Below are positions 25,822-28,800 of a stretch of 64,000 nt of DNA, one piece after another (positions within the stretch are counted from its first letter, which is position 1; the number at the start of each line of letters is the position of its first letter). This DNA comes from Cetorhinus maximus (taxonomy: Eukaryota), in NCBI RefSeq assembly GCF_964194155.1, contig NC_135902.1:49228001-49292000 (forward strand). Direction: 5' to 3'. The translations under genes were made by a program, and so were the position numbers. Below the pieces are notes generated by a model. It searched no databases. It was not told the DNA's origin and saw only the letters and a list, made by a program, of their open reading frames with translations.

Positions 25822-28800
25822 CTGTTAAAAATAAAACATTAGTACAATTACAAATCATATTTCAGAATTATGTACAATTTCAATTACTGACAAATAAACT
25901 TCATGCTCAACTGCCCATTGTGCATTCAACACAGCCCAAACCCCAGCCTTAAGCCCACCTTTCTATAAAAGCCACCATTTCAACAAATCTGGCTAGTCTC
26001 CCAAATATTATCCTGGTTTAAATTGTCCCTTGGCCTTACCCCTCTTATATCTCCATGCATTTCAAGCCCAATAATCTCACACCATGTCCCCATACCTTTG
26101 GTTCATCACCCCACTAGCAGCCATATTTTCAGTCACTTTGGGTCCCACTCAATTCCACCCCTCCCAAAACCCTTCTACCTCCCTATCCTACTTCAAAATC
26201 CACTTGAGGTTTTGGCGATCAAGTCTATTCTCTCCTTTGGCTAGACATTCATTTACCTAACCCCCTCAAGCAACTTTGGCATCAGAAAACTTTCTGGATT
26301 AAAGCATTATATAAAATTGAAGGTTGCTTTTAAAATCCCAGTTTAGCCAAAGTTTAACATCCTACAGATAAATTTTACTCAACTGGAAACTTATCAAGTA
26401 TAGTTACCTGAACCTCTGTCTTCTACCATCTGTATTAGCTTTGGGTTGATAGCCTGATTTGCTTCACGAAGCACAGAGATAAGGTCATTTGCTTGCTTTA
26501 TGTTGCCAGGAGTAAAGAACGTGTAAGCGGTGCCAGTTTTGGAACTGCGGGCAGTTCGCCCAATGCGGTGAATATAGTCTTCAGAGGAGTTAGGGTAGTC
26601 ATAATTGATGACAAATTTCACATCTTCAACATCTGTAAAGTGTTGCAGTGTTGCAAAAGCAGGTGCAAATTATGCAAACCACAACAGTCAGATCAAAAAC
26701 AGGAGTTAGCAATTGAGCAAACAGCTGCAGCATCATGACTGTAAAGCAAATGTTAAAACAACCCTTATTTCAAATCCTGTGGGAATACTACTGTGGGAAG
26801 AGAAAACAATGCACACTCCCCTTAAAAAAAAAAGCAACCCAAAATCTTAGAGAGATACTTTGAGATCTTACCATTGGGAGTATGCATTCACTAGTCCATT
26901 CCCAAGTCAGCGAACTCCCCACATGTTATCAAGTGACATCCGGATGCTTCTACACAGTTGGGGCCACTTTGTACATTGTTGCCTCTTCATGTGCCATTCA
27001 GGACCTTAGAACAGTCAGGCAAGGTCCTTCCTACACATTCATGAGAAGCTCAGGATTCAGGCCACACTGCATGTCTTGCCAAGACCAAAATAGACTACAA
27101 TTAAACAAAGCCCAATGGACACCTATATCCCCAATACCTCCCTACTCAGTTTTCCTTTTGACATCTCGTCTAGGCAAGCACTTCTAAGAAGCCAGTGTTC
27201 ACTTGAGAAAATGTCTCTGTTTGGCAGGTCCTGACATGACTAATATAAATTAGGTGAGGGAGGAACTTAAGATGAGGGCATTACACTGCTAGATTCAGTG
27301 TTGTCTAAAGCTGGGGTCTACCAATCTTCACTAACTTGTGCCAGTACTCACCACCAATTTCTGAAAGAGGACCTTACTGATGTTAACGCTGCTCTCTCCA
27401 TTAAAAAATAGAAACATGAAGCATTGAACAAAGTTTAACAATTAGATACTTGTTCAGCGCACTATTTTGGTAAACTCACTACAACTTGTAAAAAAAGGGA
27501 GTTATAATTTAGCTAACTAGGGGAGAAAAAAATGAAACTAGGGCACAATAAAAGTGAATAAAAGTACACAAATGAACCAAAGATTTAATGAATGAGAAGT
27601 GGCAAGTGCTTCAAGTCATCCAGGGCGAGAACAGGTTTTTAGGGTGGCGGGCTAATGTTGACCATTCTGCCTTTTGAAGATTACTGGCACACAATGCTCT
27701 CTGCTCAGCATCTCTGTACTCGACTGGATAGCTGCCAGCCGATCACATCGATTAGTCCTCCTTCCCCTCTCGAGTCCTCGAACTGTCATGCCTAGGCCCT
27801 GCCACAAAGACTGCACCTTTACACAACTTAGAAAAAAACGCAAAAAAATGTTAAAGAAAGCAACGATATACTTTCTTTAAATCTTTGAATAAAGTGGGGA
27901 AAGACAAAAGTCGAATTGGCATTACTAACCTAAACCTCTAGAAGCAACATCTGTGGCAATAAGGATTGGTGCTTTGCCTGACCGAAACTCTGAAAAAAAA
28001 AAGAAAGAAATTAGATCGTGCACGCTTAGAAATGCAAGAGGATTGATCAAGTTCAAGCTGGAGCACTACTTACCATTTAGAACCCAGTCACGTTCTGGTT
28101 GACTCTTGTCACCATGAATACACATTGCTGGCCATCTGTAAACAGCAAACCGATTACAAATGAAATAGTTCAGAATTTTAAAAAAGTGTTCTAGATTAAA
28201 GTGCATAAAAACAGTGTTAACTATAAACAAAGATCAACAGTTCAAATCCATCTTAAATGCATGCTTTGCACACCAATTGCACAAGCTACAAGAGATGCTC
28301 AGTAAACCACTGCAATTTGGAGCAGTTTCTTACTCCCAACCTGAAGCTAGGTCTTACTTTGTCCTGTCAATTAACTTGAGCTAAAGGCACAGATTAGGAG
28401 GAATGTCATACAGCTGTAAGAAAAGCCCTTTTGCATTGAAAAAAATCTGGCCATTTGAACTGAGCAAGGTGTCAATTTAATACTCAACTAAAGTTACAAA
28501 AGACTTCGAACTGAAAGCAACATTACACTTGCTAGCTTATTCATGTATTGCTTCCATCATGTACTCAACTTGGAAACTCAGGAGCAGACATGTATGTAGC
28601 TGTGGCTCAGTAGAGCACACAATGGACTACCAGGGGAATTTTCCAGATCACCACACTGGAGGCTACCAACAATCAAATTGTGAACAAAAACAGAAAATGT
28701 TAAAAAGGCATTTGCTTTTAGATTCAAGTAAGAAAAATCTAAACATGCAAAAAAAACAAAGCAGGGACAGTTTACAGTCTGAAATTAACTCAATGTTACA

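Follow-up and report, generated by a model that had tools for sequence, protein, structure and literature searches.

A mir-3064-like hairpin at the end of DDX5 and DDX17 intron 11 in a shark, and its possible role between branch point and acceptor

The levels of two central RNA helicases, DDX5 (p68) and DDX17 (p72), are tied together via a conserved intron, intron 11. When p68 is knocked down, the partially spliced RNA of p72/p82 and of p68 declines and mature mRNA increases (PMC1920232). In yeast, a helicase-dead mutant relieves the retention of the DBP2 intron, which occupies the corresponding position (as cited in PMC4695336). Taken together, these results imply that more helicase means less splicing. 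The available passages of PMC1920232 name neither the intron nor the element behind the p68-dependent partial splicing, and PMC3763533 attributes part of p68/p72 control to NMD. The same intron is home to a microRNA, mir-3064, with diced duplex reads in human (2840 in total, 382 in Ago-IP) and mouse (4852 and 914), all of them totals over many libraries, and with a saddle-shaped conservation profile (PMC4556696). At the human locus, the published test of whether miR-3064 biogenesis needs splicing came out negative, as splice-site mutants left miR-3064-5p at 173% of wild type (PMC4807562). A precedent for structure acting on the distance between branch point and acceptor comes from yeast, in which stems shorten the branch-to-AG distance in 21 of 88 introns (PMC12350175).

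Here we describe the DDX5 locus of Cetorhinus maximus within a window of 64,000 nucleotides, the whole stretch of DNA analysed. The gene, its intron 11 and the neighboring landmarks are as follows.

25307..37812, minus strand: DDX5 (p68) coding region, 13 exons and 653 codons (gene model; ORF 37812-25307)
26633..27929, minus strand: intron 11, 1297 nt (gene model)
26408..26632, minus strand: exon 12, 225 nt, first base 26632 (gene model)
26739..26740, minus strand: candidate alternative acceptor AG, 106 nt upstream of the main acceptor (sequence)
27758..27826, minus strand: block A, a second intron-11 block common to DDX5 and DDX17, 77% over 69 nt (alignment), near the minor human acceptor at intron position +118

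The identity of the gene is given by exon 3, whose best PDB match is to human DDX5 chains (E 4e-11, versus 4e-5 for DDX17); a Pfam search with exon 13 returned no family. Downstream of DDX5 and facing it, the window carries TERF2IP/Rap1-like exons (15574-19866, plus strand) with BRCT, Rap1 Myb and Rap1 C-terminal domains, and 45471-48945 of the minus strand resembles a non-LTR retroelement, its endonuclease and reverse transcriptase domains being spread over different frames. DDX5 intron 3 contains an inverted pair of repeat-like sequence of about 300 nt (approximately 35950-35640 and 34990-34640), seen by eye.

The position of intron 11 is common to DDX17 and to five of the 20 metagenome loci that we inspected. 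Judging by the reading frame, retention of the intron in DDX5 brings in a stop codon directly after exon 11, and the candidate acceptor at -106, if used, would shift the frame and end translation early within exon 12. Human DDX5 offers several parallels in junction reads: an acceptor 109 nt upstream takes about 1% of them, exon 12 is skipped in 299-439 reads versus 4209-5289 for the normal acceptor in control cells, and a minor acceptor lies 118 nt into intron 11; human DDX17 intron 11 carries a drug-inducible poison exon at chr22:38489223-38489458 (PMC12894984). Block A, close to the 5' end of the intron, is strongly similar between DDX5 and DDX17 (z 14.5, matched by 0 of 300 shuffles). In the DDX17 locus (L006, 677-743) it comes after a pyrimidine tract and contains several AGs, and its reading frame differs between the two genes. 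No notable fold was found in it (z -1.58 and -0.88), and a genome search with block A matched nothing but itself. It is possibly a decoy or unproductive splice site.

The element of interest lies at the other end of the intron, where it is made of two stacked stems.

26631..26693, minus strand: mir-3064-like two-tier hairpin (fold and Rfam match)
26673..26686, minus strand: core stem, 5' strand, UG-rich (fold; the arm 26691-26674 is identical to DDX17 at 16 of 18 positions)
26641..26655, minus strand: core stem, 3' strand, CA-rich, with one bulged C (fold; nine consecutive nt identical in DDX17)
26689..26693, minus strand: lower stem, 5' strand, whose predicted partner spans the acceptor (fold; context-dependent, favoured with branch point and tract held open)
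26631..26635, minus strand: lower stem, 3' strand, with the acceptor AG and the first two bases of exon 12 (sequence and fold)

When 26620-26705 is folded, a core of 14 bp joins 26686-26673 to 26655-26641, with one bulged C and two G-U pairs, and a lower stem of 5 bp joins 26693-26689 to 26635-26631, covering the acceptor AG. The original prediction of a hairpin that pairs across the exon-12 acceptor is borne out as far as this fold goes, but its lower stem proves to be context-dependent: across 20 settings of window and span its probability runs from 0.00 to 0.97, and that of the core from 0.14 to 0.97. Local folding predicts the core well, but in most windows of at least 100 nt it stays at 0.14-0.51, so that the fold is marginal in long contexts. 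These wide ranges arise because a competing fold pairs the 5' arm with sequence farther upstream, the core-containing fold being 0.6-1.0 kcal/mol above it. In the competing fold, 26743-26737 pairs with 26690-26684 (minus strand), across the candidate -106 acceptor and not the main one, hinting that the two folds might form a two-state switch between acceptors. The stability of the hairpin also depends on the stretch considered, with z -1.69 in an 86-nt window (12 of 200 shuffles equally good) and z -3.23 in a 65-nt window, the lowest among 20 DDX5/DDX17 intron ends.

A search of 2.3 kb against Rfam matched the hairpin to mir-3064 (RF03840) at 42.9 bits and E 8.3e-8 over model positions 1-67. 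This is below the gathering threshold of the family, 76 bits, and the window as a whole has zero Rfam matches at gathering level. Still, 46 of 52 arm positions agree with the RF03840 consensus, and the hairpin sits with matching arms at the orthologous position, the 3' end of DDX5 intron 11, so that the proposed kinship with MIR3064 withstood alignment. The 3' end of the hairpin coincides with the acceptor AG, which is the geometry of a 5'-tailed mirtron. Ending at the AG is common to any 5'-tailed mirtron and is not in itself a sign of the occluding switch first suggested. The reported difference in the 5p seed region is real, and falls at nt 5 when shark DDX5 is compared with the human arm in the tables of PMC4556696. 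Its reading as a mark of selection on the fold is weak, since it is a single substitution and the DDX17 copy retains the human seed.

The hairpin had also been thought to occupy the place of the pyrimidine tract. In fact, the working tract and the predicted branch point both lie directly upstream of it.

26705..26709, minus strand: CTAAC branch-point motif, predicted branch A at 26706 (-74) (motif; the equivalent human site is mapped by lariat reads)
26695..26704, minus strand: pyrimidine-rich tract between branch motif and hairpin (sequence)

DDX17 is built in the same way, with CTAAC and then a pyrimidine tract directly before the hairpin, and a predicted branch A at -102. The spacing from branch motif to the 5p start is 14 nt in DDX5 and 15 nt in DDX17. 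The zones free of AG are 90 and 125 nt long, respectively, versus 12-66 nt in 18 other introns (28 and 63 nt in DDX5 introns 1 and 12).

We predicted a distant branch point in the shark genes before examining the human lariat tables. For human DDX5, PMC4315302 lists three branch points in chr17:624969xx, at -79 to -81, which is 15-17 nt upstream of the hairpin when the human hairpin coordinates are taken from the tables of PMC4556696. At least 12 reads fall at the same spot in PMC5378181, where it is listed as -74 (the coordinates differ by 78), and in the ENCODE table of that study all five rows for the DDX5 acceptor, among the matches listed, are labelled 'distal', with the best-supported one at the same spot. 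The two tables of PMC5378181 overlap and include some reads of the PMC4315302 study. For human DDX17 there is a single read at -95 among the matches listed in PMC5378181, and the five rows that PMC4315302 gives for that region contain no intron-11 branch point. The motif and the AG-free zone here, and the human lariat tables among the matches listed, agree in placing a distant branch point upstream of the stem and none nearer, as is expected of a stem that bridges the two sites. For comparison, the bulk of human branch points, 90%, fall within 19-37 nt (PMC4315302). Folding with the branch region and the AG held open retains the core, and the predicted unpaired path then measures 27 nt for DDX5 in three of three contexts, inside this normal range; the equivalent path is 35-40 nt for DDX17, which is borderline. 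Computed by hand, the folded branch-to-AG path of human DDX5 is 28 nt.

A genome search with DDX5 exon 12 led to the DDX17 copy, on another contig (loci L002 and L006), where 51 of 53 residues are identical to the human DDX17 chain. Its intron 11 is about 6.9 kb long and ends in the same two arms as the DDX5 hairpin: 11 nt match the human miR-3064 3p arm, and an 18-nt run reproduces exactly nt 2-19 of the human miR-3064-5p arm (tables of PMC4556696), so that, unlike the DDX5 copy in the same genome, it has the exact human seed. The two copies differ in the insert between the core strands, of about 45 nt in DDX17 versus 17 nt in DDX5, and the DDX17 copy contains large internal loops. Its stability is not significant (z -1.35 and -1.28), it mostly favours a shifted register, with two registers seen across fold settings, and its lower stem has a probability of 0.00-0.80 depending on context. 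Rfam gave no match at E<=1 for the DDX17 locus, and likewise none for three further helicase loci.

How much of this likeness is to be expected can be judged from the rest of the two genes. Only 44 of 110 four-fold sites match between DDX5 and DDX17, meaning that neutral similarity is largely lost. The similarity of the intron-11 3' ends is modest in itself (10 of 1000 and 19 of 1000 shuffles are as good), and among ten pairs of intron ends it is the only one to stand out, the nine others all scoring lower and the next best being matched by 69 of 1000 and 31 of 1000 shuffles. Recent gene conversion is ruled out by the 40% identity at four-fold sites and by intron lengths of 1.3 versus 6.9 kb. 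The arm pattern occurs at exactly two places in the 4.0-Gb genome; it was built from both, which are thus hits by construction. Conserved arms of an intronic hairpin are present in two paralogous DDX5-like genes. From the sequence comparison we infer that the element predates the duplication that separated DDX5 and DDX17, an event dated to early vertebrates, and the great age originally attributed to the structure is thereby upheld. In a full-text literature search, neither a mir-3064-like element in DDX17 nor a bridging role of the hairpin at the branch point turned up; an earlier mention in older papers is possible.

Whether it is sequence or structure that has been conserved can be addressed through the six arm positions that differ from the RF03840 consensus. 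The changes at model positions 18 and 47 jointly preserve all 14 core pairs, with the bulge shifted, and the change at position 2 replaces a wobble at the junction by a Watson-Crick pair. Position 23, on the other hand, breaks an apical pair. The changes at positions 7 and 60 fit a pair that is absent from the minimum-energy fold, and we downgraded this compensatory pair to weak for that reason. The pattern of structure-keeping substitutions, taken from two loci and the Rfam consensus, is no more than suggestive, since 8.5% of 5000 trials with random sets of 4+2 changes leave as many arm pairs intact. The arms are also conserved letter for letter to a degree that a helix alone does not call for, which suggests that a protein or a small RNA recognizes the sequence; the 5' arm may be read by something in addition to pairing.

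In a scan of metagenomes for relatives, 80 loci were kept of 540 (top identity 67%), 20 of which were inspected. No vertebrate ortholog was evident among the 80. Five of those inspected (L007, L008, L011, L014 and L028) are p68/Dbp2-family loci from non-vertebrates whose intron falls at the same codon position, and the hairpin was not found in them (best z 1.7, 34 of 500 shuffles). L008 has a long stem near its acceptor for which alignment shows no homology to the DDX5 hairpin. Contigs of four sequencing runs compared with intron 11 (26639-27640) gave one 190-nt piece, from one of the four runs and outside the hairpin.

The reading that we favor, at slightly less than an even chance, is that the hairpin bridges the distant branch point to the AG, that the helicase melts this bridge, and that splicing drops as a result. 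What we observe at its basis is the presence, in both genes, of two arms, a branch motif at constant spacing and a long AG-free zone. In the predicted fold, the core stem would loop out 46 nt and bring the branch point to about 27 nt from the AG, so that the core would aid splicing and not hinder it, while the weak 5-bp lower stem would cover the AG until parts of the spliceosome bind. Abundant DDX5/DDX17 helicase would melt the bridge, slowing the removal of intron 11 and reducing the output of its own gene and of the paralog. Melting a branch-to-AG bridge gives the feedback a negative sign, in agreement with the p68 depletion data. The opposite would hold for the idea that DDX5 opens an occluded productive acceptor, as first suggested: this amounts to positive feedback, contrary to the sign seen upon p68 depletion (PMC1920232). 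The broader link to DDX5 helicase feedback we keep as a reasonable hypothesis. As for miR-3064, it would be cut from the lariat tail; the whole hairpin lies within that tail, which would make such a product easy to generate, and the microRNA is probably a by-product of a splicing structure. A more far-reaching version, possible but rather unlikely, is that miR-3064 is a misread splicing element: a bridge from branch point to acceptor that vertebrate DDX5 and DDX17 have from before their duplication, acting as the long-sought sensor of helicase activity in the auto- and cross-regulation of p68 and p72. The yeast DBP2 intron and the plant DEAD motif would then be joined by a third design of independent origin. 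We are considerably more confident in the general proposition, already present in the original prediction, that the main action of the hairpin is on splicing and not as a microRNA or through targeting, which we regard as likely.

[quoted passage not shown] If this applied here, the core would be a brake and the bridge reading would suffer. In such a brake reading, the whole hairpin, and chiefly the lower stem over the AG, could inhibit the acceptor. This would retain the occlusion originally proposed, except that DDX5/DDX17 would have to close or clamp the hairpin, by annealing, an activity that DDX5 has, or by binding, and not open it. Once the branch point and tract are held open, folding gives the full hairpin as the minimum-energy structure in three of three contexts, the AG being paired (unpaired probability 0.02-0.07). 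A strand that could pair across the acceptor is present in shark DDX5 and in the RF03840 consensus; shark DDX17 has one too, displaced by 4 nt in line with a 4-nt insertion, and so, apparently, does human DDX17, as seen in an 8-nt context. The skipping of human exon 12 described above (PMC12894984) and the association of distal branch points with late splicing (PMC5378181) go in the same direction. Against it, the lower stem contributes just 3.6 kcal/mol, with the wide range of probabilities given above for both genes. Its 5' strand also sits 13-17 nt past branch A, where parts of the spliceosome are expected to bind. Simple unwinding of such a brake would again produce positive feedback, in conflict with PMC1920232. 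We consider an inhibitory hairpin unlikely, roughly half as probable as a bridging one.

It is a little less likely still that the arms are a protein platform, in which the UG-rich and CA-rich stretches are putative sites for splicing regulators kept as sequence, pairing being secondary or toggling their availability. This would suit the identity of shark DDX17 to the human DDX5 arm at 18 of 18 nt in spite of saturation between the paralogs, as well as the scarcity of compensatory changes and the two registers of DDX17. It fits less well with the fact that just two blocks are conserved and that these are mutually complementary, separated by an insert of variable length (17 to 45 nt), and that one double change preserves the core. 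Finally, that the hairpin is maintained to make miR-3064-5p as a 5'-tailed mirtron is improbable, despite the reads, the saddle-shaped profile and a 5p arm that is the most conserved part, because the read counts are sums over libraries, the seed is changed in shark DDX5, the DDX17 copy has its 45-nt insert and large loops and is missing from the human and mouse mirtron tables searched (PMC4556696), the splice-site mutants did not abolish the product (PMC4807562), and a fixed branch-point spacing is explained less well, even if the loss of a near branch site would be accounted for.

If the bridge reading is true, an annotated microRNA, among few conserved mirtrons, would be recast as the by-product of a splicing structure. 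The cis-element of intron 11 was not found named in the literature searched, and the hairpin provides a 60-nt candidate for it in both genes, with a geometry supported by mapped human branch points; the outcomes of mutants would separate the bridge, brake, platform and microRNA models.

The closest of the known systems is mir-3064 itself (RF03840; hsa/mmu-mir-3064, a 5'-tailed mirtron of DDX5 intron 11), with which the shark hairpin shares gene, intron and position. It differs in scoring below the gathering level, in nt 5 of the seed and in a shorter loop, and has a DDX17 counterpart that is unlisted for mir-3064. [quoted passage not shown] However, the plant motif hides an alternative, unproductive acceptor, so that opening it directly lowers output, whereas the acceptor at the DDX5 hairpin is the productive one, preceded by a distant branch point and with no other AG for 90 nt; in DDX5 it is the competing fold that pairs the -106 candidate. 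The plant motif is also backed by covariation and mutants, while the DDX5/DDX17 hairpin is known from sequence and predicted fold. Yeast downstream stems (PMC12350175) likewise shorten a long branch-to-AG distance, but are not described as helicase sensors in the parts of that study available; the DDX5 stem has no cryptic AG inside and belongs to a vertebrate spliceosome. As for the autoregulation of DBP2/p68 through the conserved intron (as cited in PMC4695336, PMC1920232), the available passages do not name a vertebrate cis-element, and the hairpin was not found in the five non-vertebrate loci with the same intron. What is already known, then, is mir-3064 in DDX5 intron 11, a conserved regulated intron, the yeast downstream stems and the plant DEAD sensor; what is added here is the DDX17 copy and the branch-point geometry, which point to a role in splicing for a known microRNA locus.
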